Shown: positions 1 to 40,121 of the stretch, one piece after another
Numbering within the stretch: position 1 is the stretch's first letter
Layout of the letters: each line of letters starts with the position of its first letter
Source: a bacterium
GTDB lineage: Bacteria > Patescibacteriota > JABMPQ01 > JBDRIV01
Reading direction: 5' to 3'
DNA: 64,000 bases
Assembly (NCBI GenBank): GCA_043815505.1
Contig: JBDRIV010000004.1
Span: 7,135 to 71,134, forward strand
Position numbers and translations under genes: made by a program
The notes under the pieces: model-generated
Told to the model about the DNA's origin: nothing
The model's input: the letters and a program-made list of their open reading frames with translations, nothing else
The model's database searches: none

Positions 1-414
1 TACTAAGGTTTTCATATTGAATTTTTCTGCCAGCCACGACGCGGCCATTAGTGCTAAGGGATCCTTCATAACCAGTCGCGCACTTCTTTTCTTGAATAGT
101 TTTAATTTTCGGCTTTGCAACCATTCATAATATGCTCTTTTTAAATTTCTTTCTTTCCCTAACACGCCAGTCCAATCATAATACGATTCAAATTTTAACA
201 AATGATCAAGGTGATGTAAATATTTTTCTTCGTTATCGCTATCAATATATTCAAACCAGTAACGAAATTTGAAATTGCATTTTTTGCAGTGCGGACGATT
301 GAGATTAAAAGGCTCATGAAGATAACCAATATTTTCTGCTTTAGCTACAATATTTCCCACCCAAGTTGAACCGGAACGATGAGCTCCAGTTATTAGAATC
401 GGTTGCTTTGACAT
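1..414 (-). CDS. Sulfotransferase-family protein, 5' part only. The start ATG is at 414..412 and the gene runs off the window start. It is not in the ORF track because no stop lies in the window.
   Basis: Reverse translation of 414..1 gives [23 protein letters not shown]...LVMKDPLALMAASWLAEKF. It has an N-terminal P-loop of the 5'-PSB type (R-S-G-S-T-W) and a later KDP motif resembling the 3'-PB motif of PAPS-dependent sulfotransferases. The start ATG overlaps the gmd stop (TAATG). Confidence 0.5.
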   Translation of the reverse strand, partial: MSKQPILITGAHRSGSTWVGNIVAKAENIGYLHEPFNLNRPHCKKCNFKFRYWFEYIDSDNEEKYLHHLDHLLKFESYYDWTGVLGKERNLKRAYYEWLQSRKLKLFKKRSARLVMKDPLALMAASWLAEKFNMKTLV

Positions 415-5242: not shown

Positions 5243-6946
5243 TTAGTTGCTAGGGATAAACTCTTTATCTTCTAAATATTTAATCACTTTCTCAGTACAA
5301 GCGACTGTGTCTAATTCTGCAGTTTTTAAGTCTATATCAGGGTTTTGCGGTTCTTCAAATGGATCATTAACGCCAGTAAAATTTTGAATCTCACCTGCTC
5401 GAGCTTTGGCATAAAGTCCTCTGGTATCACGTTTCTCGCAAACCTCAATTGGCGTATTCATAAATATTTCTATAAAATTTTCAGTTTTGGCTCGCAAATC
5501 ATCACGCTGTTTTTTATAAGGTGAAATAAATGATGATATTACTCCCACACCATTGCGTGATAAAAGTTGCGCCACAAAACCAACCCGACGAATATTTTCA
5601 TCTCTATCTTCTTTGGAGAATCCTAAATCTTTGGTTAAGGATTCACGAACTATATCTCCGTCCAGTCGTTCAATTTTTATTCCTCGATCTTTTAGGACTT
5701 CATAAACTGCATCCGCTGTAGTTGTTTTGCCTGATTGAGACAGACCGGTAAACCACAACACAAAACCTTTTTGTTTGCCATTGGTTTTTTTATACATTGT
5801 ATCTACTAATGAATTATTACTATTAACTAAAAAATTAAATACTTCAGATCGTATAACATGTTCCGGTGGTTGTTCTTTTTTCTCAATCATTTCTCTTAAG
5901 GCAGTTCCTGATATGGATTCCGCCTCATCTTCTGGACATTCATTTACAAACATCAATTCTTTCTTTACTTTATTGTAAACCACACCTGCTAATTTCATTA
6001 TTTCTATACCGATTTCTTCTGGCTTGAATTTGTCAAAAACACTTTGAGCAGCGAACGGTTCATAATAATCTCCTACTCCAGCATGATCACGACCAACAAT
6101 AAAATGTGTACATCCAAAGTTTTTTCTAATTAAGGCATGAAAAACGGCTTCGCGTGGACCAGCGTAACGCATTTTTAAAGGCAGAATTCCCAGCACCACT
6201 TTGCCTTCGGGAAAATGTTGTTTAATTAAAATTTCATAACTTACCAAAATATATTCATCTTTAAAGTCCTGTATTTTTTTATCACCGATTACTGGTTGAA
6301 CAAACAAACCATCAACTTTGCTTAAAGCTTCGTGTTGTAAAAATTCGTGTGCTCGGTGCGGAACATTTCTGGTTTGAAAAGCCACAATTTTATTCCAACC
6401 AAGTTCTTCAAATTTTGCTCTGGTCTCAGCTGGCGAAAAATTGTGTTCCGGAAAAGTTTTTTTAGTATTATTCAGAAGTTCGATTTTACCACCAACAAGA
6501 TATTTATTCATTTTATATGTAGCTTCTACGCCCGGATGTTTTTTATCAATTGTCCCGTAAACATTTTGAGCAAATTCTTTTTTATTATATTCATAAATTT
6601 CCGGTTTTTGTAATAAAGCAACTGGCTTATAATCCTCATCCACCAACATTATTTTTTTCTCTCCATTAATTAGTTCTTTTTCTTTGTCATCAATATCTAA
6701 AACTATGGGAATGGACCAAACCACACCACTAGCTAGACGCATATCGGCCAACACAGACAAATAATCTTTTTTTCCTAAGAAACCTTCCAGAGGCGAATAA
6801 ACTCCACGAGCAATATTTTTTACATCTTTTACTTGTTCCTTATCAAGTTGAACTTTTTTGTAATTTTCTTGCTCACCTATTATTTTTTCAGCTTCTTCTT
6901 TGGGCAGAATTTTATTTACCAATTTTCCACCATGCGGTTGTATCAT
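5243..6946 (-). CDS. Bifunctional sulfate adenylyltransferase (ATP sulfurylase) / adenylylsulfate kinase = PAPS synthase
   Basis: The N-terminal half carries the ATP-sulfurylase motifs QTRNVPHRAHE and GRDHAGVG. The C-terminal half carries an APS-kinase P-loop (GLSQSGKTT) and DGDIVR. The start ATG overlaps the stop of the upstream cysQ-like gene (ATGA). Confidence 0.85.
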   Translation of the reverse strand: MIQPHGGKLVNKILPKEEAEKIIGEQENYKKVQLDKEQVKDVKNIARGVYSPLEGFLGKKDYLSVLADMRLASGVVWSIPIVLDIDDKEKELINGEKKIMLVDEDYKPVALLQKPEIYEYNKKEFAQNVYGTIDKKHPGVEATYKMNKYLVGGKIELLNNTKKTFPEHNFSPAETRAKFEELGWNKIVAFQTRNVPHRAHEFLQHEALSKVDGLFVQPVIGDKKIQDFKDEYILVSYEILIKQHFPEGKVVLGILPLKMRYAGPREAVFHALIRKNFGCTHFIVGRDHAGVGDYYEPFAAQSVFDKFKPEEIGIEIMKLAGVVYNKVKKELMFVNECPEDEAESISGTALREMIEKKEQPPEHVIRSEVFNFLVNSNNSLVDTMYKKTNGKQKGFVLWFTGLSQSGKTTTADAVYEVLKDRGIKIERLDGDIVRESLTKDLGFSKEDRDENIRRVGFVAQLLSRNGVGVISSFISPYKKQRDDLRAKTENFIEIFMNTPIEVCEKRDTRGLYAKARAGEIQNFTGVNDPFEEPQNPDIDLKTAELDTVACTEKVIKYLEDKEFIPSN

Positions 6947-7743
6947 TTAATTTCCTTTGTTATTTTCTTATTTAATTCTTTGTTAGCAGAACCTACTATA
7001 CCATCTAAATTATGGGGATCTTTTTTATTAAATTTCAAATCTTGACCCTGCATTCCTGTTACTACTCCTCCCGCTTCTTGTAAAACCACCACGCCACCAG
7101 CTGAATCCCATTCCCATGATTTTGGGCTTAAAGATAGGTAAATATCAGCTTTATTTTCAGCTATTTTACACATTTTCAAGCTTACACTGCCACATTTTAC
7201 ATAATTTTTCACCTGCAATTTCTTGGCCAAATCTTCTTCAGGACCGCCGGAATGATTACGACTAACGATGGCTCTCGCTTCTGCTGTTTCTGAAACTGTA
7301 GAAGTTTTTAACCCAACCTTTTGTCCATCCTTAATTTTATATGAACCTTGTCCTTTTATACCGTAATATGTTTCTCCAGTTACTGGCTGATAAACAATTC
7401 CCATAATGGGCTCCCCATTTTTTATTAAACCAACAATTATAGAAAATTCTCCTGTTTTTTGAATAAAATCCTTGGTTCCGTCCAAGGGATCAACTGTCCA
7501 AATAAATTCGGAGTCTAAACGTTTCTTATCATCAATAGATTCTTCAGCTAAAACTGGATAACCATATTTTTTTAAACCTGCAACTAAAATATCGTTTGAT
7601 TCTGTATCAGCTTTAGTTAAAGGACTGTTATCATCTTTTATTTCAATTTTATAATCCTTATTATAATAAAATCTTACTCGTTCTCCGGCAGTGTGAACTA
7701 ATCTTATAATTTCGGAAGCAACAGTTTCGGGATTATTCATCAA
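6943..7743 (-). CDS. 3'(2'),5'-bisphosphate nucleotidase (CysQ) / inositol-monophosphatase family
   Basis: IMPase-family motifs WTVDPLDGTKDF and the GG..E region. It is translationally coupled to the PAPS synthase, which fits a PAP-recycling role. Confidence 0.65.
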   Translation of the reverse strand: MMNNPETVASEIIRLVHTAGERVRFYYNKDYKIEIKDDNSPLTKADTESNDILVAGLKKYGYPVLAEESIDDKKRLDSEFIWTVDPLDGTKDFIQKTGEFSIIVGLIKNGEPIMGIVYQPVTGETYYGIKGQGSYKIKDGQKVGLKTSTVSETAEARAIVSRNHSGGPEEDLAKKLQVKNYVKCGSVSLKMCKIAENKADIYLSLSPKSWEWDSAGGVVVLQEAGGVVTGMQGQDLKFNKKDPHNLDGIVGSANKELNKKITKEIK

Positions 7744-8680: not shown

Positions 8681-8852
8681 AAATTAGGTGCCTTTTTTAG
8701 CAAAATTTAAAATCACTATATAGCACAACTTATCATATTTTTTTGTTCTTGGCAATTCTTTTTTCTTTTCGATAATAAGCTTATAATTTGGCTTATTTAA
8801 GGGTTTTATTGCTGTTTATAATAACTTGCTTAAGTGTGTTATAATAACCTAT

Positions 8853-10826
8853 ATGGAAGTTGAAGAAAATCAAAATTTAATAGAAGAATTTTTTGAGCCA
8901 ACTATTCGCAATACTGGCATTGTTATTGCTATTTATTTGGCTCTCTTGACAACCTTGGCTATGTTTGGTCTATTCTCTAAAACAGTTGTGATAGTACTTT
9001 TATTTCCAGTAATATTTTTATTTTTATTTTGGCTTTATAAATATCTGCGAAAATTAGAAACTCCTTGGCGCATCCAAAAATTTGATTTTATTGCTCTGCT
9101 TTTAATTCTATTTATTGCTATTGCCCTTGGCGCCTTTCATCATCATTTACCAATGGGTCGCGACGATATGGCCTATATGGCTAGTGCTGTCAACATTTCT
9201 GATAATGGCAGTTTAGAATTTGAAGATGTTTACAGCTATCCTTTTTCCCCTTGGCAAGAAATTTCTGACAATACTTTTACTTCCCAGTTTGTTCCTGTTT
9301 ATGCTGTTGGTTTAGCTTCTTTTTATGTTTTATTTGGACTGACGGGAATTTATTGGTTTAATGCAGTATTAATATTTTTAACCTTATTATTTCTATTTCG
9401 TTTAATAGTTTTACTTACAAAAAGTAGACATTCTGGCATTACATTAATATTACTTTTCAGTTCCCTTTTTACAACGATTTGGTTTGTTCGACGAACAAAT
9501 TCAGAAATTCTATTTATGTTTTTGTTTTGGTTGGGAATTTATTTATTTGTACTGGGGTTCAAGAATTCTAAAATTAATCAAACTTTGTTGGGATTTATAC
9601 CCATCACTCTTCTTCCCCTAGTTCGTTTTGAAGGTGTCTTTTTTATAGTTTCTTATTTATTAGTTTTTATATATTTACTACTTTTCTCAAATTTACGCCA
9701 TAGTAAAACTCGAGCTACAAAATATATTTATTTACCGCTGATTCTTAATTTGGGAATTTTTGTTTGGTATGTTGTTTTGTATAGTTCTGGCTATATTTCT
9801 CGTATTCTAAATGAATATTTTGGTACATTGACTTCATATTTGCTAAACAATTGGATCTTTCTAATTATTTTATTGCTTCTGGTTGTGGGTATAATAATCT
9901 ATCGTGTATTTTATTTCACCAAAAAGGAAATCTCTAAAATAAGTTTTTCCCGATTATTTTTTACTTTATTAATATTAATTGGAATTGCTTGGGGAATTTA
10001 TGAATATTTTCTGTTGCAGTATGCTGATACTGTCAGCTGGGGACAAATAAAGAGTTATTATATAGCCTATAGCTTTTTCACTTATGGTTTTGTCTGGTAC
10101 ATAATTATAGCCCTATTTGGTTGGTATAAAAAATATTTTAAGAAATCTGTTTGGTTAATTGTTCTTATTTCTTTGCCCAGTTTTATGTTCCTAATTGAAC
10201 CTGGTATTGCCATTGATCATCCTTGGTATATGAGAAGGTTTATTGCTGTATTAATTCCCCTACTTATAATACTTGCTACTATCACTTTGGCTAAATTAAG
10301 GCTACCTTTAAAACAACTTTTAAGTTTAACTCTTATTTTACTGGCTTTAAATATAACTATTAGTTTACCAATTTTAATTTATCGCGATCATTTAGGAGTT
10401 GATCAGGAATTGTCAGATTTTGCTGAGCATTTTAAAGACAATGATTTACTAATCATGCAACCCGGTTGGGACTGGCAACAATGGGCTTATGGGCTTCATT
10501 ATCTACATGATTTGGATGTTGTGCCTAGAGAAGATAATTTAGCTAAAGATAAATTGAACGAAATAATTAACAGTCACGAACATATTTATTTAATTAGCAC
10601 CAGCGAAGATTATCGTCACCCTCTTTTTCCCGGCCCCTATGCAGAACCTGATTTTAAATGGCTACTTCATTATCCAGAAATGCAAAAAGCTGCTGATATG
10701 AATTTGTATATTGATGACAAAGGAGCCAATATGAAAACATCAGCCATTAAAGCTTATTTAGACGAATTACCACCACGAGTTATTATGGAAAAACAAACTC
10801 TTTGGTATATAACAAAGGTTAAGTAA
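8853..10826 (+). CDS. Polytopic membrane protein, GT-C-fold glycosyltransferase-like (ArnT/PMT/YfhO-like)
   Basis: It has more than 12 predicted TM helices. A conserved-looking RDD acidic motif lies in the first extracytoplasmic loop (HLPMGRDDMAYMAS). The gene is divergent from the GtrB-like gene. The likely start is the ATG at 8853; the ORF track extends it to a TTG at 8826. Confidence 0.45.
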   Translation: MEVEENQNLIEEFFEPTIRNTGIVIAIYLALLTTLAMFGLFSKTVVIVLLFPVIFLFLFWLYKYLRKLETPWRIQKFDFIALLLILFIAIALGAFHHHLPMGRDDMAYMASAVNISDNGSLEFEDVYSYPFSPWQEISDNTFTSQFVPVYAVGLASFYVLFGLTGIYWFNAVLIFLTLLFLFRLIVLLTKSRHSGITLILLFSSLFTTIWFVRRTNSEILFMFLFWLGIYLFVLGFKNSKINQTLLGFIPITLLPLVRFEGVFFIVSYLLVFIYLLLFSNLRHSKTRATKYIYLPLILNLGIFVWYVVLYSSGYISRILNEYFGTLTSYLLNNWIFLIILLLLVVGIIIYRVFYFTKKEISKISFSRLFFTLLILIGIAWGIYEYFLLQYADTVSWGQIKSYYIAYSFFTYGFVWYIIIALFGWYKKYFKKSVWLIVLISLPSFMFLIEPGIAIDHPWYMRRFIAVLIPLLIILATITLAKLRLPLKQLLSLTLILLALNITISLPILIYRDHLGVDQELSDFAEHFKDNDLLIMQPGWDWQQWAYGLHYLHDLDVVPREDNLAKDKLNEIINSHEHIYLISTSEDYRHPLFPGPYAEPDFKWLLHYPEMQKAADMNLYIDDKGANMKTSAIKAYLDELPPRVIMEKQTLWYITKVK

Positions 10827-12346
10827 TGGACAAACTTACCATAAAAATTATCAAGATATTAATTATAGTTTCTCCGCTTATTCTCTTTGGATATCTGCTA
10901 GACAAACGCTTTGTTCCGAGTGGCAAAATAAGTTTTGTTTACGATTTCAAAAATGATTCTGGTTTTATTTCTAAGCTTTATCCTGATGATAGAATAGCTG
11001 AAATTGAAAACACGGACGATTTTTATTCACAAGCACTAAAAAAAGATTTAGCTTATTTTGATACTTTTATATTTCGTCCTTTCAACGAAATTAAAATGAC
11101 AGTTGATTTTAAACCTGGTCAGCAAAATGTCGTTGAACTTGGTCCCGATATTTCTGACAATAAATGGACTTATGATTTTCAACCGTTAACTAATCAAATT
11201 CTAAATAATTTAACTTGGGAACAGGTAGCTGAAAATGGAACAATTTTATGGCAAAAAGAAAAGAATTATGATTCTTTAGAACAATTATTTGGCAATTTAC
11301 CTGGGGAAAATAAGAATGTGGCCTATTATAATTATGATGATTTTATCAGCGACCGTCGTTTAGCCGATTACTCTCCCACTGACGAAACATATGTAATAAA
11401 TGAAGCCTTGCGTGGTAGTCATACAATTTATACTTACATTAAAGATGAAAATTTGGATATTAAAGTGCAAAAATCTGATTTAAACAGGTATAATGGCCAA
11501 GACGAATTAAATATCAGATTATTCTCAGGCGCCAGAGAAATTTTTGCTAAAACAATAGATGATGATGGTATTAATGATAACTCTGATGTCCCAGGAAAAA
11601 TTCAAGCCACGCAAGTTAAAATTTCTAAAGAATCTTTGCCGGAAGGAATTTATCGTATTGAACTTGATACCTCCGATGATGTTTTAATTAGAAGAATTGA
11701 AACTAAACAAAATAAATTAGTATTTGCCAATAAAATATTTTTAGCAGAAAATGTTAATTACTTGCCAACCGAATCTGTTAAAGACGAGCCCACTATTGTA
11801 TATGCTTCTATTTATCCCGAGCTAGGAAAAACCGAGGTGGAAACCCCCCGAGCAGAAAGCCTCCAGACCATTACTTTTGATAATAAATCAATTAAATTAA
11901 CAGAACCTAATACTAAATATGATATTAGTCAACTAGTTGATGCTACGGGTATTACTAAAATTTCTGTCCCGGATCGTGATATAAAGATTGAGAGCAAAGG
12001 TTTCTTTGCTTTTTCCGATCAGCAATATTTTTATCCCCTGCCACCAAATTATTCCAGGCTAAGTGATACAACTAATTTAGATAAAACTGATTACATAATT
12101 GCTAATTATGTAAAACCAACTAAGCTGGCAGATGACAGGTGGCAAAATTCAATTACTTTTAATTATGATGATGTTTATATTGATCAGAATAATACTTTAC
12201 AGTTTGCTCTTTCAGCCCCTAATTTAGAAAACAATAATAACAGTGTTGCCATATCCCAAATTAAATTGGAATTGATAAAAGATCCGCTTCATTGGAACGA
12301 TTTCTTGCCCCGTCTCAAAAACTATATCACTAATTTGTATCAATAA
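10826..12346 (+). CDS. N-terminally membrane-anchored extracytoplasmic protein, unknown function
   Basis: A 506-aa ORF translationally coupled (ATGA/TAATG) to both the upstream GT-C gene and the downstream gene. It has a single N-terminal TM helix and is Asp/Asn-rich. Confidence 0.5.
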   Translation: MDKLTIKIIKILIIVSPLILFGYLLDKRFVPSGKISFVYDFKNDSGFISKLYPDDRIAEIENTDDFYSQALKKDLAYFDTFIFRPFNEIKMTVDFKPGQQNVVELGPDISDNKWTYDFQPLTNQILNNLTWEQVAENGTILWQKEKNYDSLEQLFGNLPGENKNVAYYNYDDFISDRRLADYSPTDETYVINEALRGSHTIYTYIKDENLDIKVQKSDLNRYNGQDELNIRLFSGAREIFAKTIDDDGINDNSDVPGKIQATQVKISKESLPEGIYRIELDTSDDVLIRRIETKQNKLVFANKIFLAENVNYLPTESVKDEPTIVYASIYPELGKTEVETPRAESLQTITFDNKSIKLTEPNTKYDISQLVDATGITKISVPDRDIKIESKGFFAFSDQQYFYPLPPNYSRLSDTTNLDKTDYIIANYVKPTKLADDRWQNSITFNYDDVYIDQNNTLQFALSAPNLENNNNSVAISQIKLELIKDPLHWNDFLPRLKNYITNLYQ

Positions 12347-12717
12347 TGTCTCTGCGCAATTTATTAAATCGCGATAATATAAATGAAATAAACACCACGT
12401 TTTTTTCCACGGTTATAATAACTTATATTATAATTTTATTAATAGATATTGTTACCTCAGGTTTTGTGGCGCGTTTGTTTAACATAAACATCTTTTTGTT
12501 TCTATGCGCAGTTTCTGCTTTTATTATGATGGTATTCCCACCCAAAAAATCTTATTTTGCAGATAAATTTTCAAAAAATTTCCTCCTAATAGTTTCTCTA
12601 TTAGCAGGAGCTCTGGTTTATGCCAAGACCTTTGATACTGGCTGGGAAGGAATTATATTTTCCTTGGCCGTTTTGTTTATTACTTACCAATCACTAAAAC
12701 TTTTTTATCAGCCTTAA
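12346..12717 (+). CDS. Small 4-TM membrane protein (GtrA-like flippase-associated protein?)
   Basis: A 123-aa protein with 3-4 hydrophobic helices. Its size and position next to the GtrB-like/GT-C genes resemble GtrA. No diagnostic motif was seen. Confidence 0.35.
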   Translation: MSLRNLLNRDNINEINTTFFSTVIITYIIILLIDIVTSGFVARLFNINIFLFLCAVSAFIMMVFPPKKSYFADKFSKNFLLIVSLLAGALVYAKTFDTGWEGIIFSLAVLFITYQSLKLFYQP

Positions 12718-13664
12718 GATCTGTTGGTTTTATACCAGTCAACAAATATTTTAATTCCGTCAGTAAATGAGGTTGACGGTTTAAAGCCAAGTAACTGCTC
12801 GGCTTTTTTTGTATCAGCATAAGTAATAGCCACATCTTCTTTTGGTTTGGGTGATTCTTCAATAATTGCCTTTTTACCTATTGCCTCTTCTATATTGGCA
12901 ATAAATGAGTTCAAATCTATTGGCTTTGAATTTCCTAGATTTATAATTTCGTAAGGAAAGGATTTTTTGGCAGCTGCTATTACACCATTTACAATATCAT
13001 CAATATAAGTCCAGTCCCGTTTCATGGAACCATCACCAAATTTTTTAATGGGTTGGTTTTTTATTATTGCTTCTGTGAATAAATATGGCGCCATATCAGG
13101 GCGACCTTTTGGTCCATAAACGGAAAAAAAGCGCAAACAGGTCGTATTTAAGCCAAATAAATAGTGATAGGTATAGCACATCAACTCCCCTGCTTTTTTT
13201 GTGGCAGCATAGGGAGAGGCGGGACTATTAACATCATCACTTTCTGCAAAAGGAACTTTTTTATTATTACCATAAACTGACGATGAGGAAGCAAAAATAA
13301 AATCCTTCGGTCCATATTTTTTGGCAGCTTCTAAGAGATTTAATGTTCCCATAACATTTACTTGGTTGTAAAGTGTGGGATCGGCAATTGAATTTCGCAC
13401 TCCGGCTCGGGCAGCTAGATGAATTATTTTATCAAATTTGTTTTCGCTAAATACTTCTTCTACAAATTCTCTATTAGTAAAATCTCCTTCTAACAAATGA
13501 AACTTTACGAATTTTTCAAGTTCAGCAGTATTTTGTCTTTTGTATTCTGGATTATAATAATCGTTAAAACAATCTAAACCAAAAACTTCTTCTCCGTTTT
13601 CAAGAAGTTTTTTAGCAACTGAAGAACCAATGAAACCGGCGGCGCCGGTGATTAAATATTTCAT
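12714..13664 (-). CDS. NAD-dependent nucleotide-sugar epimerase (UDP-glucuronate 4-epimerase-like)
   Basis: ITGAAGFIGSSVAKKLL followed by YYNPEYKRQN, a pattern seen in Cap1J/LpsL/GlaKP-type epimerases. The SDR motif YAATKKAGE is present. It lies adjacent to ugd. Confidence 0.7.
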   Translation of the reverse strand: MKYLITGAAGFIGSSVAKKLLENGEEVFGLDCFNDYYNPEYKRQNTAELEKFVKFHLLEGDFTNREFVEEVFSENKFDKIIHLAARAGVRNSIADPTLYNQVNVMGTLNLLEAAKKYGPKDFIFASSSSVYGNNKKVPFAESDDVNSPASPYAATKKAGELMCYTYHYLFGLNTTCLRFFSVYGPKGRPDMAPYLFTEAIIKNQPIKKFGDGSMKRDWTYIDDIVNGVIAAAKKSFPYEIINLGNSKPIDLNSFIANIEEAIGKKAIIEESPKPKEDVAITYADTKKAEQLLGFKPSTSFTDGIKIFVDWYKTNRS

Positions 13665-13665
13665 T

Positions 13666-14739
13666 TTAATTTAAATATTGACTCGGTATTAATTTCTTAT
13701 CTATCATCTTTTCCAATTCCTTGTTATAAACTCTCGATTTTTCTTTAATAAGGTTTCTTATTAACTTAGGTAATTTATACTGTAAAAATCGATATTTACT
13801 ACAAATTCTACTATAATACCTAATAATTTTGAGAATATACTTATCAAATTTGGAATATATGGTTTTAGAATGGTTTTTCAATAACTTAATATTATTTATA
13901 AATTTATCAACATCTTTATTATCATATAACGATCTTGACTTTCTAGCCTGCAATAAAAGATTGTTCATTATCTTACTATCATAACCATAATTTGAACGAA
14001 ATGCTATTTTATGCTTTGCCATTATTATCACAATAAACATTGTTATAAGATCGTATGAAATATTTGTTCTAGGAATATTAATATCGGAGCTGTTGTCAAA
14101 TTTGATACCTGCTATTTTTAATATTTCACTTCCGATATTTGTAATATTACTTTTATAATTTTCGTAAAACAAAATACTAAGCTTGTCTTTATAATGAAAT
14201 GAAAATTCTTTTATTAAATCTACATAATTCCAATCGTTAATATCTATTTGCATGCATCTCTTCCATTTCTCATTATAAGCAAATTTAATATTGGAAAATG
14301 GAAGAAAAACATCTTTTGGATTTAGAAAATAATTTTGATAAACATGCTGTTGATACAAACTTCTTAAAATACTTTCTTGATGCCTTAAAACTATGATTAT
14401 TCTCGCATTTGGAAATATTGCTTTAATAAACTTTAGTCTTTTTTTGTAGTCAAACCTTAACATCCTTAGAGATAGTGTTTCTAATGATATTAATATATTC
14501 TTCTGCTTAATCTTTTTTTCTTGATTTTCTATAACATTCTTTAGTAATTCTATGTCATCTTCTTTAAACATATCAAAATCCACAAGTTTTATTGCTTGTT
14601 TGAGTGAATTAAGTATTACCAGAGGGTTATAGATTGTAGAATTATTATTGAGTCTTGAGAAAAAATGTTTTTGAATTGCTGTAGTGCCGGTTTTTGGTAA
14701 TCCAATATGAAGTATATAATTCTTCATGTTTTGATTCAT
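13666..14739 (-). CDS. Sulfotransferase-like P-loop protein
   Basis: N-terminal HIGLPKTGTTAIQ (5'-PSB-like PKxGTT) and a later IIIVLRHQESILRSLY region (3'-PB-like). The rest of the protein is divergent. Confidence 0.45.
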   Translation of the reverse strand: MNQNMKNYILHIGLPKTGTTAIQKHFFSRLNNNSTIYNPLVILNSLKQAIKLVDFDMFKEDDIELLKNVIENQEKKIKQKNILISLETLSLRMLRFDYKKRLKFIKAIFPNARIIIVLRHQESILRSLYQQHVYQNYFLNPKDVFLPFSNIKFAYNEKWKRCMQIDINDWNYVDLIKEFSFHYKDKLSILFYENYKSNITNIGSEILKIAGIKFDNSSDINIPRTNISYDLITMFIVIIMAKHKIAFRSNYGYDSKIMNNLLLQARKSRSLYDNKDVDKFINNIKLLKNHSKTIYSKFDKYILKIIRYYSRICSKYRFLQYKLPKLIRNLIKEKSRVYNKELEKMIDKKLIPSQYLN

Positions 14740-14788: not shown

Positions 14789-16078
14789 TTATTTCCCAAT
14801 ACCAAAATATTTATAGCCCATATTTATCATTTTTTCTTTATCTAAAAGATTGCGACCATCAAAAATGTAAGGTTTTTTAAGCATAGATTTTATTTTATTC
14901 CAATCCAGATCTTTAAATTCTGGCCATTCGGTAGCAATAATTACAGCGTCTGCATCTTTAACGGCTTCATAAGCATCGTTGGTATATTCAACCTCATGTC
15001 CGTTTAAGGCGCTGGCCGCCGTTTCTTCGGCAATTGGATCATAAGCAGCCACTTTGGCACCAGCTTCTTTTAAAAGCTTTATAATTTCTAAACTGGCAGA
15101 TTCACGAATATCATCTGTATTGGCTTTAAAAGCTAAACCCAGTGCACCAAATTTTAATCCTTTAATTTCTTTAAACTCATCCTTAATTTTTTCAAATAAT
15201 ACTCTTCTTTGGTTATTATTGACAGTAATTACAGCCTTTAAAAGGTTAAATTCATAACCACGAGTTCCAGCAATTTGGTAAAGAGCATTAACATCTTTTG
15301 GAAAACAAGAGCCACCATAGCCAATTCCCGCGTGCAAAAAATGCCGTCCGATTCTATCATCCCTACCCATCCCGTGAGCGACCATGTCAACATCAGCTCC
15401 AACCTTTTCACAAATGTTAGCAATTTCATTTATGAAAGATATTTTGGTTGCCAAAAAAGCATTGGAGGCATATTTAATCATTTCTGAGCTAGCAATATTT
15501 GTTGTTATGATATCAGCGTCAATGGGATCAAATAGTTTTTTTATTTTGTCTTTGGCTTTTTTACTCTCTGCTCCAATTACAATTCTGTTAGGTTCAAAGA
15601 AATCCTGTACCGCTGAACCTTCACGTAAAAATTCCGGACAAGAAACTACATCAAATTCTCCCTTATAATGTTTTTTAATTATTTTCTTTATTTCCTGACC
15701 TGTTCCTACTGGTACAGTACTTTTAGTAGCAATTATTTTGTAGCCTTTCAGGTTTTTACCAATATCTTCTGCTACTTGATAAACATATTTCAGATTGGCA
15801 GTTCCATCTGGGTTAGACGGCGTTCCTACAGCAATGAATACAATTTCTGATTCAGCCAATTCATCTTTTAAGGATGTTGAAAAAGAGAGGGTTCCTTTTT
15901 TTGCTTCTTCAACTATTAATTCTGTTAATCCTGGTTCATAAATAGGAACTTTTCCCTTTTTTAATTTCTCAATTTTTTCTTTATCAATGTCGACACAAAC
16001 CACTTGATTGCCAAATGATGCTAAACAAGGACCTAATACTAATCCTACATAACCTGTTCCGACAACTGTTACTTTCAT
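14789..16078 (-). CDS. ugd: UDP-glucose 6-dehydrogenase
   Basis: MKVTVVGTGYVGLV Rossmann motif and the catalytic Cys region (GGSCFPKD). Confidence 0.85.
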   Translation of the reverse strand: MKVTVVGTGYVGLVLGPCLASFGNQVVCVDIDKEKIEKLKKGKVPIYEPGLTELIVEEAKKGTLSFSTSLKDELAESEIVFIAVGTPSNPDGTANLKYVYQVAEDIGKNLKGYKIIATKSTVPVGTGQEIKKIIKKHYKGEFDVVSCPEFLREGSAVQDFFEPNRIVIGAESKKAKDKIKKLFDPIDADIITTNIASSEMIKYASNAFLATKISFINEIANICEKVGADVDMVAHGMGRDDRIGRHFLHAGIGYGGSCFPKDVNALYQIAGTRGYEFNLLKAVITVNNNQRRVLFEKIKDEFKEIKGLKFGALGLAFKANTDDIRESASLEIIKLLKEAGAKVAAYDPIAEETAASALNGHEVEYTNDAYEAVKDADAVIIATEWPEFKDLDWNKIKSMLKKPYIFDGRNLLDKEKMINMGYKYFGIGK

Positions 16079-16084
16079 ATTATT

Positions 16085-17245
16085 TTACTTTAAGTATGTT
16101 TTTAGTTTGGCTGCTTTGTTGGTTTTTTCCCAAGTGAAATCTTTATCGTTGCGTCCGAAATGTCCATAAGCAGCAGTTTTTTTGTAGATTGGTCTCTTGA
16201 GTCTTAGAGTTTTGATGATGTCAGCTGGTTTCAGGGAAAATTCACGTTTTACAATTTTTTCGATTTGCTGATCAGGAAGCTGGCCCGTTCCAAAGGTTTG
16301 CACTAAAACTGAAACCGGTTCGGCGCGTCCAATTACATAAGCTATTTGCACCTCACATTTTTCTGCCAATTTGGCTGCCACAATGTTTTTAGCAATGTAG
16401 CGTCCCATATAAGATGCACTTCTATCAACTTTGGATGGATCTTTTCCAGAAAAACATCCCCCACCGTGAGAACCGTGCCCACCATAAGTATCAACAATTA
16501 TTTTTCTGCCGGTAAGGCCCGCATCAGCTGGTGGCCCACCTTTAACAAATTTTCCGGTAGCATTTATGAAATATTTAGTTTTACTGTCCAAATATTTACC
16601 TGCTACAGGTTTAATTACTTTGTTTATAATATCTTTTTCCAGTTTGACTGGTGAAACCTCAGGATTGTGTTGAGCTGCACAAACAACGGTATCAACTCTT
16701 TTGGGCTTACCATCTACGTATTCAACAGCAATTTCTATTTTTCCATCTGGTCTGAGGTAAGGAAGAGTTTTATTTTTTCTAACATCAGCTAGCTTTTTAG
16801 CCATTTTGTGAGAAAGCAAAATTGGCAAAGGCATTAATTCTGGAGTTTCGTTACAAGCATAACCAAACATTAAACCTTGATCTCCTGCTCCTTGTTCTTT
16901 AAATTTTCCCTTTCCTTTATCAACGCCTTGAGCAATATCACCCGACTGTTCATCAACTGCTACAATTACACCACAATCATCACCAGAAAAACCAATACTT
17001 CCATTATTGTAGCCTATTTCCTTTATAGTATCGCGGGCAATCTTGGCTATATCGACATAACCTTTAGTTCTAATTTCTCCTGCTACTACCACTAAACCGG
17101 TAGTAACCAAGCATTCTACACCGGCTCTACTCTCAGGATCCTGAGATAGTAGCGAGTCTAGAATACTATCTGAAATTTGGTCGGCAACTTTGTCGGGATG
17201 CCCTTCAGTCACAGATTCTGAAGTAAATATGTATTTGTTGGCCAT
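16085..17245 (-). CDS. metK: S-adenosylmethionine synthetase
   Basis: [28 protein letters not shown]-like GGGCFSGKD, and DTYGG. Confidence 0.92.
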
Positions 17246-17260
17246 ATTTTTAATTAATAA

Positions 17261-18229
<969 letters not shown>

Positions 18230-25737: not shown

Positions 25738-28700
25738 TCACTGAATTAGACCTACAGCTGAAATTCCACCTCTAAAATAGTCTTCAAAAGCAAAGAACTG
25801 CAGACTATTTTCCCCACCACCAGTATTAAAAGTTCTAACTTGTGGTCCACCCGAAGCATTGGGACCAGTTATCACACCAGGCGTTCCATAATATGTTAGG
25901 GGTACAAAATCTATATTGGCACCCGCTTCAACCCCTTGAGGGTAAGCTCTAAATTCTGCCAATTGATTTCGTTCATTGTTATAACGATAAATTTTTGTCC
26001 AAGCTTCTCCATTTCTAAGTTGACTAACAGCAATTTCATCTTTGCCATCAGAGTCGGCGTCAACCGTGGCTACATCTACTCCGGTTCGAGAATCGGGATG
26101 AAAAGCATAAAACTGAATTGGTTTAAGAGCACCATTGGCTTCAAAAACTCTGATTTGGGGACCGCCACCAGTACCGGCGCCAACAATAACTTCTTCTTTG
26201 TTATCAGCGTCAATATCTCCCATAGCCACAGTGGCTCCAATTTCTAATCCGGGAGCAAAAGCTCGCCACTCACCTACTACAGTTTGTTCATCGTTATAAC
26301 GATAAACTTTAACCCAAGCTTCTCCGTTAGCAAATTGGGAAGCGGCAATTTCATCTTTACCGTCATTGTCAATATCACCACAGGCTACATCAACCCCAGT
26401 CCGGGAATCAGAATGAAAGGCAAAAAATTGAATTGGCTTAACCGAACCATTACTTTCAAAAACTCTAATTTGCGGACCGCCACCAGTACCGGCACCAGCA
26501 ATTATTTCTTCTTGACCATCACCATCAATATCACCGGAAGCTAGACGAACACCACCACGAAAGTTTTCGGCATAGGCATAAAATCTTGTTTCTTCTTGTC
26601 CTAAGTTGTTGAAAACTTTTATTTCTGGTGTGGCTCCAGCTCCACGAGCTACAGCAATTTTGTAATTAACTGTTATATTTTCACCACCACTTCCGTTATT
26701 TGGTGGCTTATTGGTATCTTGAGGCGGATCTACAACTGGCAAACTTGCTTTCACCTCACCATTAATTTCTAAAATCATGACCGAATGAGCGGGAATTCTT
26801 AAATCAATTGAATTGCCAGAAAATGATTGTCTAGATTCTGAAACTTGAACCTTAGTTATGCTTTCATTATGAGCATAAATGCTGGGACCATTTAAACTGT
26901 AAATTGTAACTTGTCTGTTTGAATTAAAATGGTCAATACCAATATCAGCCTGCATGGCAGTGTTGGGATGTTTGTTTATAATTAACAAATAAATCTTATC
27001 ACCAGATCTGGAAGCATAACTGGTAACATATTTGTTTTTGCTTAAAGCCGGTAAATTTCTAAATTGTCCTACCGAATATTTTGGACTACCTGTTACAGTA
27101 GAAGCTATAGCTTTATTTCCGTGATGTTCATTTACCAAACTGACAGCTAAAGCAGATGGTCTGGGATCACCGTTGTCTTTAAAAGCACCCCAGTGACTAC
27201 CAAAAACAGAAATTCCGTGAAACATACCAGCCGTAACTCCTTCCTGTTGCATTGCGCCCAGTAAATCAGCTGTCGCTATTCCATAGGCTAAACTACGACC
27301 AAGATTCTCATCACCGGTGTTAAATTCTGTAACCAAAACTTCCAACTCACTTGTTCTATTGCCATAGCGTCTGGCAATATCATTCAATCTATCAACTACC
27401 CCCATTCCTTGTCCGTAGGGAGTAGGATAATTTTTTTGAAAGCTTCTGGCTGAAGCCATCAACTGATGATAGCTTTCACCACCAATGCCATAAAAAGGAT
27501 AATAATGTACCGCCACAAAATCTATTTGATTGTTGGCTTCTTGAAATAAAACTCTTTCCCAATTAGCAACCGAATTATCCAACGCCACGTGCGCTCCAAT
27601 TTTTATGGACGGATCAACCGCCTTCATGGCACTAGAGAATTGTTTTACGGTTTGAGCATATTTAGAAGCCGTCATGGTGGCATCATCCCAGATGTAGTGT
27701 TCATTACCTATTTCCCAATACTTAATATGGCGATTTTCTACAATATTTAATTGGCGAACTAAATTGGCGGCATTCGTAGGAGTTCCTTTGGTATTGGCCA
27801 CCATTACAATTGGGCTATTTGTTTCGTCTGCTAAATCTAGGGCCGATTCAAAATCTCGCACTCCCCAAGGCTTGCCAGAATACGTTGGTTGACGTTGTTC
27901 TGCTCGCCAAATAAATCTGTAATTATTTAAAGTATTTTGAGAGCGAGCCGCAATTCCTATATAACCTTGATCAAATGGATTTCCAGCGGCCACCGGTTTT
28001 ACATCAACCTCAAATTTGTAATTGCGCCAATTTTTTAATCCGGCGCGTCTTAAAACAAAAGGAATTTTTCCTTCGTGAACATAGCGTCCATTTCCACTAG
28101 TCCAAGTTCCAGTATTTCTATAATAAGGAATATCGCCATTACTCCATTCAGAATCATCACTATCATTAAACAAGTCTTGATATAAAACTTCGTCGTTGGC
28201 CAAATTGGTAATTCTGACATTATTAAATATAACTTTCTCATTATCAGAACTAATTAAACCAATATCTCCAGTTGAAAAAGTTGAATCGGAATCAGAAAAT
28301 ACTACTTTGTTATCAATATATAATCTTAAACTTGATCCATTAACTCTAAATTCTAAATGATATTCTTGGCCGGGATTATAAGTTACATTGTCAGAATCTA
28401 AAACATAATATTTTCCATCTACAATTTTAACGAGCATTCTGGCACCCGGATCGTAAGGAGCAAAAATTCTTACTGCCCCAGCTGGATAATCTTCCAAGGC
28501 TTCATTTAAATTATCTTTATTAAAAAGTTCTGGATCAGAACTAAAACCAGCAACCTTACTATCTATGGAATTACCAATGTCTAAAGGGTTAACTCTAATT
28601 TTAATATTTTGGGTAGCGCGAGAATCGTGCGTTAGAGTAATTACCGCTATGATTAAAATAAGCAAACCAATTTTTAGAAAAAACAAAATCTCCCATTCGA

Positions 28701-28791
28701 CAAAGGGAGTGGCAATAATATGCAAAAATTGCCGTACCAATTTATAAATCTGTCGACCGATTTCTTTAATTTTTTTCCATAAATAAGCCAT
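25738..28791 (-). CDS. Large membrane-anchored surface protein with a clan GH-A glycoside hydrolase-like domain and C-terminal FG-GAP (integrin-alpha-type) repeats
   Basis: It has an N-terminal TM helix. The clan GH-A acid/base motif YWEIGNEHY and the nucleophile motif VTEFN are present. Three C-terminal FG-GAP-like blades carry GDIDGDGQEEI / CGDIDNDGKDEI / MGDIDADNKEEV. Confidence 0.7.
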   Translation of the reverse strand: MAYLWKKIKEIGRQIYKLVRQFLHIIATPFVEWEILFFLKIGLLILIIAVITLTHDSRATQNIKIRVNPLDIGNSIDSKVAGFSSDPELFNKDNLNEALEDYPAGAVRIFAPYDPGARMLVKIVDGKYYVLDSDNVTYNPGQEYHLEFRVNGSSLRLYIDNKVVFSDSDSTFSTGDIGLISSDNEKVIFNNVRITNLANDEVLYQDLFNDSDDSEWSNGDIPYYRNTGTWTSGNGRYVHEGKIPFVLRRAGLKNWRNYKFEVDVKPVAAGNPFDQGYIGIAARSQNTLNNYRFIWRAEQRQPTYSGKPWGVRDFESALDLADETNSPIVMVANTKGTPTNAANLVRQLNIVENRHIKYWEIGNEHYIWDDATMTASKYAQTVKQFSSAMKAVDPSIKIGAHVALDNSVANWERVLFQEANNQIDFVAVHYYPFYGIGGESYHQLMASARSFQKNYPTPYGQGMGVVDRLNDIARRYGNRTSELEVLVTEFNTGDENLGRSLAYGIATADLLGAMQQEGVTAGMFHGISVFGSHWGAFKDNGDPRPSALAVSLVNEHHGNKAIASTVTGSPKYSVGQFRNLPALSKNKYVTSYASRSGDKIYLLIINKHPNTAMQADIGIDHFNSNRQVTIYSLNGPSIYAHNESITKVQVSESRQSFSGNSIDLRIPAHSVMILEINGEVKASLPVVDPPQDTNKPPNNGSGGENITVNYKIAVARGAGATPEIKVFNNLGQEETRFYAYAENFRGGVRLASGDIDGDGQEEIIAGAGTGGGPQIRVFESNGSVKPIQFFAFHSDSRTGVDVACGDIDNDGKDEIAASQFANGEAWVKVYRYNDEQTVVGEWRAFAPGLEIGATVAMGDIDADNKEEVIVGAGTGGGPQIRVFEANGALKPIQFYAFHPDSRTGVDVATVDADSDGKDEIAVSQLRNGEAWTKIYRYNNERNQLAEFRAYPQGVEAGANIDFVPLTYYGTPGVITGPNASGGPQVRTFNTGGGENSLQFFAFEDYFRGGISAVGLIQ
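25940..26550. repeat. Two tandem ~300-bp near-identical DNA repeats inside the FG-GAP region of the 1017-aa gene
   Basis: The antisense ORF-track fragments 25936..26247 and 26284..26544 translate to near-identical peptides. The sense-strand protein repeats IAGAGTGGGPQIRVFESNGSVKPIQFFAFHSDSRTGVDVACGDIDNDGKDEI as IVGAGTGGGPQIRVFEANGALKPIQFYAFHPDSRTGVDVATVDADSDGKDEI. Confidence 0.6.
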
Positions 28792-28974: not shown

Positions 28975-29952
28975 TTAACTAGGACCGACACCTTGATTGG
29001 TATCAACGGCCAAGGTAATAACTGGACCCTTGTCTCCGCCCCAAGGATTAAGATCCCAGCCGTAGAGGAGAATTTCATCCATACTGAACACGCTCATTCT
29101 GAATTTGCACAACACGTGTTCGTTGTTTTCACCTCCGATGTGAATCATAACTCCATTTTTACTTCTCTGTAAAAGAAGTAATCCCCACACATATGGGTGG
29201 TAATTACTGGTGTTCCAATTACCGGGAAAAGTATACAGATGGCTGGTATTGTAGAATCCACCACCTGTATCAATATTAACGTCGCGAACCCAGGCCTCAA
29301 CCAACCCATCTGTGCGGGAGCGGAAGCTGTAAGCCATGTAGAACAGCCGGAAATGGTCCTGCGTTTCCTGGTTGATGACCGCCAGCTTTTCCGACAACCG
29401 ATAGATAAGAAAGGATGGTGGTGCTGACCAAGTCAGCACGACTCCCATTCCCTCTTGCAAGCGATACGGGCCGTCCCACTCATGCGAGGTACCCAGTTCC
29501 GGATAGCACTGTTGTACCTCTCGTTGCCAGAACGGGGAGTAATCGCCATATCCATCAATCAAGGTGTTCATCGGAACATTAACTGTTGCGTTAATGTTTA
29601 TCGGCTGCATATCATACAGCGACATGTTTGCCGGCACTGATACAATCCGATTAATTCCATAAGACATCAATCCTTTTTGAGGACCGACGTACTCTTCCTT
29701 AACCGTCTGCATCGTATCCACGTTATACCACATCACCAGAACGGTGTCGGTATAATTTACCCGTGGGAAATACCCAACAATGTCCTGGCCGGTTTCGGTG
29801 AAGACCTGGTCGTAGGACCGATCGGCCTTAACCATCTGAACAAATTCATTTTCCACACCCGGCAAGTTGGGCCGAATGAGAGCGGCATTCACGGTTCCCG
29901 TGAACGTGACGACCAAAACGGCCATCAAAGCGATAATCAGTATTCTTTTCAT
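28975..29952 (-). CDS. Secreted hypothetical protein encoded in a high-GC island
   Basis: Signal peptide MKRILIIALMAVLVVTFTGTVNA. The start is the ATG at 29952, preceded by AGGAGA; the ORF track extends it to a GTG at 29976. GC is about 48% against about 31% in the flanks. The gene has its own terminator. Confidence 0.6.
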   Translation of the reverse strand: MKRILIIALMAVLVVTFTGTVNAALIRPNLPGVENEFVQMVKADRSYDQVFTETGQDIVGYFPRVNYTDTVLVMWYNVDTMQTVKEEYVGPQKGLMSYGINRIVSVPANMSLYDMQPININATVNVPMNTLIDGYGDYSPFWQREVQQCYPELGTSHEWDGPYRLQEGMGVVLTWSAPPSFLIYRLSEKLAVINQETQDHFRLFYMAYSFRSRTDGLVEAWVRDVNIDTGGGFYNTSHLYTFPGNWNTSNYHPYVWGLLLLQRSKNGVMIHIGGENNEHVLCKFRMSVFSMDEILLYGWDLNPWGGDKGPVITLAVDTNQGVGPS

Positions 29953-30178
29953 TCTCTTTCTCCTGATTTGCCACACGACGATGGCAAAAGTTGTAGTTGC
30001 AGTCGTACTCGAACAAACTTAGTTTTGCACCTCCTTTCCACTTTTCCTTCAGTTGTAATGAACGTTATTTATTATATTTATTTTTAACAGCACCAGATGG
30101 TACTGTCCTGCCCTTTCTATATTCTTTTTAAACACTTCTTACTGCTTTCAGAAAGAGCTGGATAGTATCACCTATTTT

Positions 30179-37914: not shown

Positions 37915-39078
37915 CTACTGTTCAGCCAGAACTATTTTTAGTGAAAAATTATTATCTTCTCTAATCACTTTTAGTATTACTTCATCTTGAGGATCAAAGT
38001 TTTGCATAATTTTGGAAAATGATGATGTTTTTCCAATCTCATAATCATCAATTTGCGTTATTATATCACCCGATCGCAGTTTGGCTTCAGCGGCAGGTGA
38101 ATCTTCTACCACAGCCGATATGCGGACATCATCAGAGTAAATGAGAATTCCATGATCAGAGGGCAAATCATTTAGTGAAGCAAATTCAGGAGTTAAAGGA
38201 ATGTATCTAATTCCTAAAAATGGTCTCAGTATTTTGCCACCAGCAATAACACTGTCAATAGCTTTTTTGGCATCGTCAATTGGCAAAGCGAAACCAATAA
38301 GCTGACCCGAACTATCTACAGCAGTATTTATACCAACAACGCGACCAGATAAATCAAGTAGCGGTCCGCCCGAATTGCCGGGATTAATAGAAGCATCAGT
38401 TTGAATAACTCCTTCTAGTTGCTCACTTTGCGAGGCAAATGAACCACCGGCGTATATATTTCTGTCTAAACCACTAACAATGCCTTTGGTTACAGTGTTT
38501 TGATAATTACCCAAGGCATTACCAATCGCTACTACAGTTTGTCCAACTTCCAAAGCAGAAGAGTTTCCTAATTCTAAAACTGGTAAAGTAGAGGCTTCAA
38601 TTTCTAAAAAAGCTAAATCATTAATCGTATCTCTTATTACCTTGGTGACTGTAAACTTTTTCCCGGCACTGGTAATTACTGTATAGGTTGCATCAGTAGC
38701 GGAAACAACATGACGGTTGGTTAAAATTAAACCATCACTGGTAATGATAAATCCCGTTCCACTTGCCTGTTGATTAATAGTTTGCCCAAAAATATTTGTA
38801 CTTTGAATATCAGCCATAATACTAACAACCGAGGAACTGGCTTCTTTAATTATATCTGTTACCGCTTCATTAATTTCGACATTTATAACTTCTTCACTCG
38901 TAGCATTGTTGTTGTTCGTTTCAGTATTTGTTTTAGAACTAAAGTAACGATCGGTAACAAAACCTCCTAAAGCGCCAGCTACTAAAGAAATTATAATTAG
39001 TAAAACTAGATATCGACCTTTTCTTTTTGGCGATTTCTTCATTTTTATTGTTTCTGTTTCCATATTTATATTGTCCAT
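37915..39078 (-). CDS. HtrA/DegP-family serine protease with PDZ domain
   Basis: Catalytic motifs TNRHVV and GNSGGPL, a C-terminal PDZ domain, and an N-terminal TM anchor. Confidence 0.8.
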   Translation of the reverse strand: MDNINMETETIKMKKSPKRKGRYLVLLIIISLVAGALGGFVTDRYFSSKTNTETNNNNATSEEVINVEINEAVTDIIKEASSSVVSIMADIQSTNIFGQTINQQASGTGFIITSDGLILTNRHVVSATDATYTVITSAGKKFTVTKVIRDTINDLAFLEIEASTLPVLELGNSSALEVGQTVVAIGNALGNYQNTVTKGIVSGLDRNIYAGGSFASQSEQLEGVIQTDASINPGNSGGPLLDLSGRVVGINTAVDSSGQLIGFALPIDDAKKAIDSVIAGGKILRPFLGIRYIPLTPEFASLNDLPSDHGILIYSDDVRISAVVEDSPAAEAKLRSGDIITQIDDYEIGKTSSFSKIMQNFDPQDEVILKVIREDNNFSLKIVLAEQ

Positions 39079-39848: not shown

Positions 39849-39889
39849 AAAACACCCCTGGAGGGAATGTTTTCTGCTTCAAATATAAA

Positions 39890-40096
39890 TTATTTAATTG
39901 CGCCAATTCTGAACATCTTGGTGCCGCATTTTGGACAAGTTCCTTGAACTGCTGGACGACCATTTTTCATCTCAATTTGGTTTGGCTCGTTCATTTGTTG
40001 TTTAGCTTTGCATTTGACACAGTAAGCCTCAACTTGTGGTGTGTCATCACTTTGGGTGTCGTCACTTTTTGTGTCTTCACTTGGTGCATCTGCCAT
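39890..40096 (-). CDS. Small zinc-ribbon protein
   Basis: A 68-aa protein with CVKC...CPKC four-Cys ribbon and an acidic N-terminus. Confidence 0.5.
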   Translation of the reverse strand: MADAPSEDTKSDDTQSDDTPQVEAYCVKCKAKQQMNEPNQIEMKNGRPAVQGTCPKCGTKMFRIGAIK

Positions 40097-40121
40097 GTTG
40101 TTTTTGTTAATTATAAATAAT

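Follow-up and report, generated by a model that had tools for sequence, protein, structure and literature searches.

The locus described here raises two questions: whether a strongly diverged gene within a bacterial surface-glycan region encodes a sulfotransferase, and what such an enzyme would sulfate. The gene lies at positions 13666 to 14739 of a stretch of 64,000 nucleotides (the window) from contig JBDRIV010000004.1 of assembly GCA_043815505.1, a metagenome-assembled genome (MAG) of the Patescibacteria, or Candidate Phyla Radiation (CPR). The elongation factor EF-G of the window points to the same origin, its closest named relatives (72-76% identity) all belonging to Patescibacteria/Parcubacteria-group lineages. 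An earlier note, made from the letters of this DNA, had described a sulfotransferase-like gene with two motifs resembling those that bind 3'-phosphoadenosine 5'-phosphosulfate (PAPS); the open reading frame (ORF), of 357 aa on the minus strand, and the motifs are present as described. The product is very probably a sulfotransferase. On balance we favour the view that it is a soluble cytoplasmic, PAPS-dependent enzyme, co-transcribed with a nucleotide-sugar dehydrogenase gene (ugd) and a sugar-nucleotide epimerase gene, that would O-sulfate a nascent or lipid-linked surface glycan.

Sequence and structural evidence

The identity of the gene is not surprising, because automated annotation already names the product as a sulfotransferase. 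The NCBI record MFH1509283.1 ('MAG: sulfotransferase domain-containing protein [bacterium]') belongs to a contig of 255 kb and is identical to the 353-aa version of the protein that starts at M5 (MKNY...), and the MKNY start is common to all aligned homologs. Since both the homologs and the NCBI model begin at M5, the true start is probably position 14727. No transmembrane segment or signal peptide is apparent in the protein (maximum 19-residue Kyte-Doolittle mean 1.42, at residues 229-247), and its pI is 9.8.

Searched as a single sequence, the protein matches the Pfam families Sulfotransfer_1 (PF00685; E=3.3e-8, 33.7 bits versus a cut-off of 22) and Sulfotransfer_3 (PF13469; E=6.6e-7, 30.2 bits versus a cut-off of 27), with an alignment that spans residues 9-217. 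The earlier note had called the gene highly divergent, which agrees with the single-sequence searches: phmmer against the PDB matched no chain, and the NCBIfam scan matched no model. About 20 full-length relatives with 38-49% identity, mostly unnamed, were found by a word-indexed search of 5.8 billion proteins. Sulfotransfer_3 is matched by 14 and Sulfotransfer_1 by 12 of the 19 family members, with no competing family among the matches. When 1.84 billion representatives were searched exhaustively with a profile, 3829 matched at E<=1e-3 and only 18 at <=1e-30; the full-length family is therefore small, and the superfamily that shares its N-terminal domain is large and diverse. The names of ten distant superfamily representatives were absent or read 'hypothetical protein'.

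Solved structures were reached only with a profile of 125 superfamily sequences; the profile of the 19 family sequences found no sulfotransferase in the PDB. With the larger profile, all of the best 60 of 70 matches carry sulfotransferase-family names. The top match is 3rnl, a sulfotransferase of Alicyclobacillus acidocaldarius (E=4.5e-17, profile positions 93-239), followed by SULT2A8, SULT2A1, SULT7A1, SULT1E1 and others. The alignment to 3rnl extends to about residue 240. The statement that some 250 aa of the protein resemble nothing recognisable does not hold up against this alignment and that of Pfam, which leave only about 130 residues without a Pfam match. On sequence grounds the protein is a divergent subfamily member within the known sulfotransferases, and the subfamily is uncharacterised.

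The residues expected to hold PAPS are conserved. All superfamily counts given here refer to the 125-sequence alignment, with a mean column identity of 17%. G13 of the 5'-phosphosulfate-binding (5'-PSB) loop GLPKTGTT is invariant (125/125), and position 16 is K in 115 sequences and R in the other 10. H11 and E193 are each present in 119/125. The segment IIIVLRHQESILRS (residues 114-127) contains the 3'-phosphate-binding (3'-PB) motif, with R119 in 125/125 and S127 in 123/125. In the alignment with 3rnl and the cytosolic SULTs, the superfamily pattern LRxQxDWxxSxY falls on the canonical motif for 3'-phosphate binding, RNPxDxxxS, which in 3rnl reads LRNPVDRAFSAY; an FYE(D/E) strand is matched as well. 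Alignment to 3rnl and the SULTs, together with the predicted strand-loop-helix, thus bears out the two motif assignments of the earlier note. According to a review, the family is defined by the PSB Gly plus Lys/Arg and by the PB-helix Ser within RXXXDXXXS, and the catalytic base is a His or a Glu on a variable element (PMC11625862). The PSB Gly with its Lys/Arg and the 3'-PB Arg with its helix Ser are both found here. A third conserved element contains S85 (120/125) and E87 (E in 119/125). E87, which the model places at the end of the strand adjoining the P-loop strand, is the candidate catalytic base; a conserved Glu is plausible in this role, as in the NDST/TPST class (PMC11625862).

The full-length AlphaFold2 (AF2) model has a pLDDT of 86 and a pTM of 0.85. 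The PSB element is predicted as a strand (7-12), a loop and a helix (16-29), and the PB element as a strand (113-118), a turn and a helix (121-134). A helical hairpin (residues 40-74) is inserted ahead of strand 81-85, and the C-terminal third is all-helical. Foldseek with a model of residues 1-228 gave 52 matches in the PDB at E<=1e-3, of which ranks 1-9 are all sulfotransferases (TMq 0.44-0.57), so that the sulfotransferase-fold match sought by the earlier note was obtained by structure as well as by profile. The best match is again 3rnl (E=4.9e-6, TMq 0.51), followed by the tyrosylprotein sulfotransferases TPST1/2 (3ap1, 5wrj; ranks 2-4), Schistosoma SULT-OR and SULT7A1. The highest TM-scores to the domain model, with TMq 0.55-0.57, belong to the sulfotransferase domain of NDST1 (1nst, 8ccy). 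The predicted fold, with a central parallel beta-sheet, is like that of solved sulfotransferases, and by sequence the domain covers about 225 residues.

The last 130 or so residues have no Pfam match and include a moderately hydrophobic helix at 229-247. N339 (118/125) and Y355 (112/125) are kept throughout the superfamily, and the C-terminal region therefore probably belongs to the functional unit, where it may serve acceptor or adenine binding.

The nearest relatives differ from the window protein in instructive ways. Identity to 3rnl, both the best profile and the best fold match, is about 15%; unlike 3rnl, the window protein has the helical hairpin, of about 45 residues, inserted between strands 2 and 3, and its helical C-terminal region differs as well. 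We know of no published function for 3rnl, a structural-genomics entry. Cytosolic SULTs (PF00685, SULT2A1, SULT1E1) likewise have a PK(T/S)GTT-type 5'-PSB loop and an R...S 3'-PB motif, and in them too the final core strand is followed by a YE(D/E) segment. In contrast to them, the window protein has the conserved Glu, not the SULT His, as candidate base, and Pfam covers only residues 9-217. GxxGxxK is the C-terminal PAPS-binding motif and KxxxTVxxxE (KTVE) the dimer motif of cytosolic SULTs; neither was found in any of the 19 family sequences, and the protein is therefore not of the cytosolic SULT type. NDST1 and the TPSTs, which use a Glu as base, are eukaryotic, Golgi-resident and membrane-anchored, whereas the window protein is bacterial. 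Neither heparan sulfate 3-O-sulfotransferase (E=0.3) nor TPST (E about 0.01, short stretches) has significant sequence similarity to the family.

Gene context and proposed function

The features discussed are listed in Table 1. The earlier note had placed the gene between a UDP-glucuronic acid (UDP-GlcA) epimerase gene and ugd. A dehydrogenase and an extended short-chain dehydrogenase/reductase (SDR) epimerase are indeed encoded there. The dehydrogenase scores 498 bits with TIGR03026 (cut-off 190); its best equivalog is the UDP-glucose 6-dehydrogenase TuaD, with 585 bits, under the cut-off of 700. No equivalog cut-off of NCBIfam is passed by the epimerase (or dehydratase). In the PDB it matches 5u4q best (307 bits), followed by 6zl6/6zla (184 bits); the latter is the Bacillus cereus UDP-GlcA 4-epimerase, an identity not stated in the depositors' names. 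Identity as a UDP-GlcA epimerase is plausible from these matches. A gap of 49 nt separates ugd from the sulfotransferase gene, and 1 nt lies between the sulfotransferase stop and the epimerase ATG.

Table 1. Position of the sulfotransferase gene, its domains and motifs, and associated genes in the window
Feature	Position	Strand	Residues	Basis or remark
Sulfotransferase gene	13666..14739	minus	357 aa from first ATG	PF00685 and PF13469 above cut-off
N-terminal sulfotransferase (P-loop-like alpha/beta) domain	14056..14739	minus	1-228	AF2 pLDDT 85.8; Foldseek
5'-PSB loop GLPKTGTT	14680..14703	minus	13-20	Sequence and predicted strand-loop-helix
S85-L-E87, C-terminal end of strand 3	14479..14487	minus	85-87	Conservation and secondary structure
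3'-PB motif R119-H-Q-E-S-I-L-R-S127	14359..14385	minus	119-127	Aligned to RNPxDxxxS of 3rnl/SULT
C-terminal all-helical region	13669..14055	minus	229-357	No Pfam match; AF2
Nucleotide-sugar (probably UDP-glucose) 6-dehydrogenase, ugd	14789..16078	minus		Directly upstream, same direction
Extended-SDR sugar-nucleotide epimerase, probably UDP-GlcA 4-epimerase	12714..13664	minus		Downstream of sulfotransferase
Bifunctional ATP sulfurylase/APS kinase (Sat-CysC PAPS synthase)	5243..6946	minus		PUA_2, ATP-sulfurylase and APS_kinase
CysQ-like 3'(2'),5'-bisphosphate nucleotidase candidate (removal of PAP)	6943..7743	minus		Inositol_P, 183 bits
Second sulfotransferase-like protein, PSB-like GAHRSGST	1..414	minus	N-terminal 138 aa	Cut by window edge

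These genes belong to a glycan island that takes up about the first 37 kb of the window. Its content includes two gmd paralogs, three GT2 genes, a GT4 and an FkbM methyltransferase, with a membrane-anchored GT2 after the Sat-CysC/CysQ-like pair. The epimerase, sulfotransferase, ugd, metK and further SDR enzymes follow, together with RmlA, RmlD and RmlB-like genes, GT4s, a methyltransferase, a radical-SAM enzyme, a Wzy_C protein and a DegT aminotransferase. Precursors of the GDP-6-deoxyhexose and dTDP-rhamnose type are thus encoded as well.

A supply of sulfuryl donor is encoded in the same island. The domain models of the Sat-CysC protein are above cut-off, and this PAPS synthase is the likely donor supply for the sulfotransferase. 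Its gene overlaps the CysQ-like gene by 4 nt; the product of the latter, which would remove 3'-phosphoadenosine 5'-phosphate (PAP), scores 205 bits with TIGR01331, under the cut-off of 229. More than 100 cluster-level relatives of Sat-CysC were found at 57-65% identity, and all those with an organism name belong to CPR lineages; the module is therefore common in CPR and not a one-off import. Two of the relatives, P0299 (945 aa, with GT4 domains) and P0389 (809 aa, annotated with UDP-glucose dehydrogenase domains), are either real fusions or merged gene calls.

The fragment at the window edge is Sulfotransfer_3-like and stays under the cut-off (23.4 versus 27 bits) because the edge truncates the protein. 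BLASTP found no similarity between it and the sulfotransferase described here, and the two represent separate lineages. Given Sat-CysC, the CysQ-like protein and this second sulfotransferase-like fragment, a sulfated surface glycan is the likely product of the island.

From family membership, motif conservation, the predicted fold and the gene context, we infer that the enzyme uses PAPS. The strand-loop-helix H11-I-G-L-P-K16-T-G-T-T20 would hold the 5'-phosphosulfate of PAPS, and in the transition state K16 would steady the bridging oxygen. Binding of the 3'-phosphate would fall to R119 and S127, which lie on the strand-turn-helix. E87, on a strand end beside the P-loop strand, most likely would deprotonate the acceptor hydroxyl for in-line sulfuryl transfer. 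The enzyme would be produced with Ugd and the probable UDP-GlcA 4-epimerase from one transcript of the roughly 37-kb island. Because genes for the PAPS synthase and the CysQ-like phosphatase are part of the island as well, the reaction is most likely the O-sulfation of a sugar on a lipid-linked oligosaccharide or growing glycan, which would take place at the cytoplasmic face prior to export. PAPS would come from the island Sat-CysC, and PAP would be recycled by the CysQ-like enzyme. That the acceptor is a glycan is considered probable, with less confidence than the assignment to the sulfotransferases.

Comparable gene sets are known from other bacteria. Sulfotransferases stand among glycosyltransferases in the xss/synechan system of Synechocystis (XssA, XssE; PMC8205485) and in the capsular polysaccharide locus of Vibrio sp. 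KMM 8419, which also contains genes for PAPS synthesis (PMC11641403). It has been suggested that the combination of PAPS-synthesis and sulfotransferase genes in a polysaccharide cluster is a hallmark of the making of sulfated polysaccharides (PMC11641403). The window is likened to both systems by gene content, not by sequence homology. It differs from them in belonging to a patescibacterial MAG and in drawing PAPS from a Sat-CysC fusion, not from CysDN plus CysC.

Family comparison and the acceptor

Other full-length family members occur at 11 distinct loci. The sources are MAGs (three of Cyanobacteria, one of Desulfuromonas and one of an unclassified 'bacterium') and contigs from metagenomes. 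Loci L003 and L005 are syntenic, with genes for a GT25-like protein, TauD, GT4, a GT-like protein, a Sulfotransfer_1 protein and an unknown protein, then the homolog. The last four form a block common to these unrelated contigs (L003 7066-11065, L005 5047-8831), in which the Sulfotransfer_1 protein has 260 aa and the unknown protein 300 aa. TauD or PhyH dioxygenases, a luciferase-like oxidoreductase and GT4/GT25-like genes adjoin the block. The homolog is surrounded by a glycosyltransferase and methyltransferases at L006, and by GT2, GT4, GT11 and radical-SAM genes at L009. At L010 (1-15514, Desulfuromonas sp. BM304 MAG) the order is UbiA, two GT2, FkbM, Wzt with Wzt_C, FkbM, homolog (10010-11074), Sulfotransfer_3 protein and ATP-grasp, with the second FkbM methyltransferase and an unassigned ORF between the Wzt ABC ATPase and the homolog downstream. 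The family showed no relationship to this neighbouring Sulfotransfer_3 protein in hhalign (probability 12%). L008, L011 and L075 are too short for their surroundings to be judged.

A tblastn search with the cluster proteins of the window found no homolog of ugd, the epimerase, the PAPS synthase or CysQ within 10 kb of the other 11 full-length loci. Around some 140 distant superfamily loci, sat/cysC homologs lie within 10 kb in 10 cases, ugd in only 2. Judged by these gene contents, the link to PAPS is supported at the level of the superfamily, the link to glycan synthesis is frequent and not universal, and the link to uronic acids is specific to the window genome.

Several observations weigh against the proposed glycan sulfotransferase. 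L001/L002, L004 and L077 lie in non-glycan surroundings, and the family is therefore not strictly glycan-associated; the earlier note had held that homologs in unrelated contexts would speak against its finding, and these three loci are in part such a case. Where the RXXXDXXXS consensus has its central D, the window protein has S123 (D in 77/125). The CysQ-like gene and the Sat-CysC fusion are both under NCBIfam equivalog cut-offs. The fold similarity is modest (TM about 0.5), and adenylate kinases (nucleoside monophosphate kinases, NMP kinases) appear from rank 10. A profile of the first 100 residues alone found no solved sulfotransferase and nothing significant in the PDB, so that K16 and E87 have no directly aligned counterparts in a solved sulfotransferase.

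The earlier note had taken the position of the gene as a sign of a uronic-acid acceptor, that is, a residue derived from glucuronic or galacturonic acid (or, more broadly, a residue of a uronic-acid-containing repeat unit), sulfated at a site distinct from that of the enzyme at 1..414. The tight operon of ugd, sulfotransferase and probable UDP-GlcA 4-epimerase speaks for this, as do the 6zl6/6zla entries among the best relatives of the epimerase, the annotation of the PAPS-synthase relative P0389 as fused to Ugd domains (fusion or merged call) and the lack of relationship between the two sulfotransferase-like proteins of the window. The association is absent, however, from the other 11 full-length loci, none of which has a ugd or epimerase homolog within 10 kb, and the distant loci add just the two cases near ugd. 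A neighbouring gene for a precursor does not reveal which residue is sulfated, and the island makes 6-deoxyhexose and rhamnose-type precursors too. A uronic-acid residue specifically is thus an unlikely acceptor overall; drawn from the tight ugd-sulfotransferase-epimerase arrangement of the window genome, it is a reasonable local hypothesis. A sulfation site other than that of the enzyme at 1..414 is a reasonable supposition.

Sulfation of a small metabolite, a lipid or a protein tyrosine, by a gene that merely lies within the island, is quite unlikely. The members at L001/L002, L004 and L077 stand among housekeeping or regulatory genes, and tyrosylprotein sulfotransferases are among the best fold matches; against this, fold ranks differ only slightly between sulfotransferase classes, the window gene is translationally coupled to sugar-nucleotide genes, and five other family loci, in four arrangements, are glycan clusters.

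Methyl and phosphate caps are known from O-antigens that depend on ABC transporters, as in the E. coli O8/O9a system. The arrangement at L010, with the homolog after a Wzt ATPase with the carbohydrate-binding domain Wzt_C and flanked by FkbM and a second sulfotransferase, is reminiscent of the chain-terminating caps recognised by Wzt. By this analogy, the sulfate might cap the non-reducing chain end, stop polymerisation and mark the chain for export. This explanation is very unlikely for the window, where a Wzy_C-type protein is encoded and no Wzt or Wzm was found; it draws on a single locus and on the E. coli analogy.

A P-loop kinase was rejected on motif and profile evidence, and it is scarcely credible that the protein is such a nucleotide kinase-like enzyme: NMP kinases do occur in the Foldseek lists and top that of the full-length model, which matches the PDB weakly (E>=1.8e-3, TMq about 0.3; NMP kinases and sulfotransferases mixed), and the profile of the first 100 residues aligns best with a P-loop NTPase (E=0.53; Walker A/B on the PSB loop/S-x-E), but Walker A (GxxxxGK[ST]) is absent from 19/19 family and 123/125 superfamily sequences, which have T or S at the position of the Walker Lys, all significant sequence-profile matches are sulfotransferases, and sulfotransferases rank above kinases for the domain model.

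The module as a whole is of wider interest. Few bacterial carbohydrate sulfotransferases have been characterised so far. One paper states that, among bacteria, only cyanobacteria have sulfated polysaccharides (PMC8205485), although there are now examples from marine Vibrio and Cobetia (PMC11641403, PMC11766843). In the library searched, nothing was found on CPR sulfotransferases or on a glycan-associated PAPS module in CPR. The presence of a complete sulfation module, with PAPS synthase, PAP phosphatase and two unrelated sulfotransferases, suggests that episymbiotic CPR cells with reduced genomes invest in a sulfated surface, which could matter for host attachment. A bolder proposal is put forward only tentatively: CPR may make sulfated uronic-acid surface glycans, and the protein may represent a new clade of Glu-base glycan sulfotransferases, with a helical hairpin insert and a C-terminal N...Y region, fed by the Sat-CysC widespread in CPR. 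If so, sulfate activation in reduced CPR genomes would serve the decoration of the cell surface and not sulfur assimilation. The small, well-conserved family is a tractable target in the search for new glycan-sulfating specificity. Of more interest than the gene itself is the wider point that a PAPS module in association with glycan genes is common among CPR genomes.

Other features of the window

The gmd paralogs lie at 414-1472 and 17261-18217 (both minus) and score 575 and 463 bits with TIGR01472 (cut-off 415). Between ugd and the second gmd is metK (16085-17245), which may be the source of the S-adenosylmethionine (SAM) used by the FkbM, class-I and radical-SAM enzymes encoded in the island. 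A 1017-aa FG-GAP repeat protein is encoded in mid-island (25738-28791, minus), followed by a 333-aa protein without a Pfam match (28975-29976).

No tRNA genes were found in the 64-kb window. Nearly all 2-kb bins have a negative GC skew, and long ORFs are almost all on the minus strand. The only sizeable plus-strand genes seen are a trio at 8826-12717 with overlapping consecutive starts and stops. They encode a multi-pass membrane protein of 666 aa that matches PMT_2 and Wzy_C weakly (perhaps GT-C-like), a 506-aa protein assigned to no family (NCBI 'hypothetical protein ABIE68_03895') and a membrane protein of 123 aa. Over its first 16 kb the glycan island has a G+C content of 29-34%, versus 35-40% further along. 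Just past the island, at 37915-41336 (minus), two HtrA-like trypsin-PDZ protease paralogs flank a DUF5656 protein.

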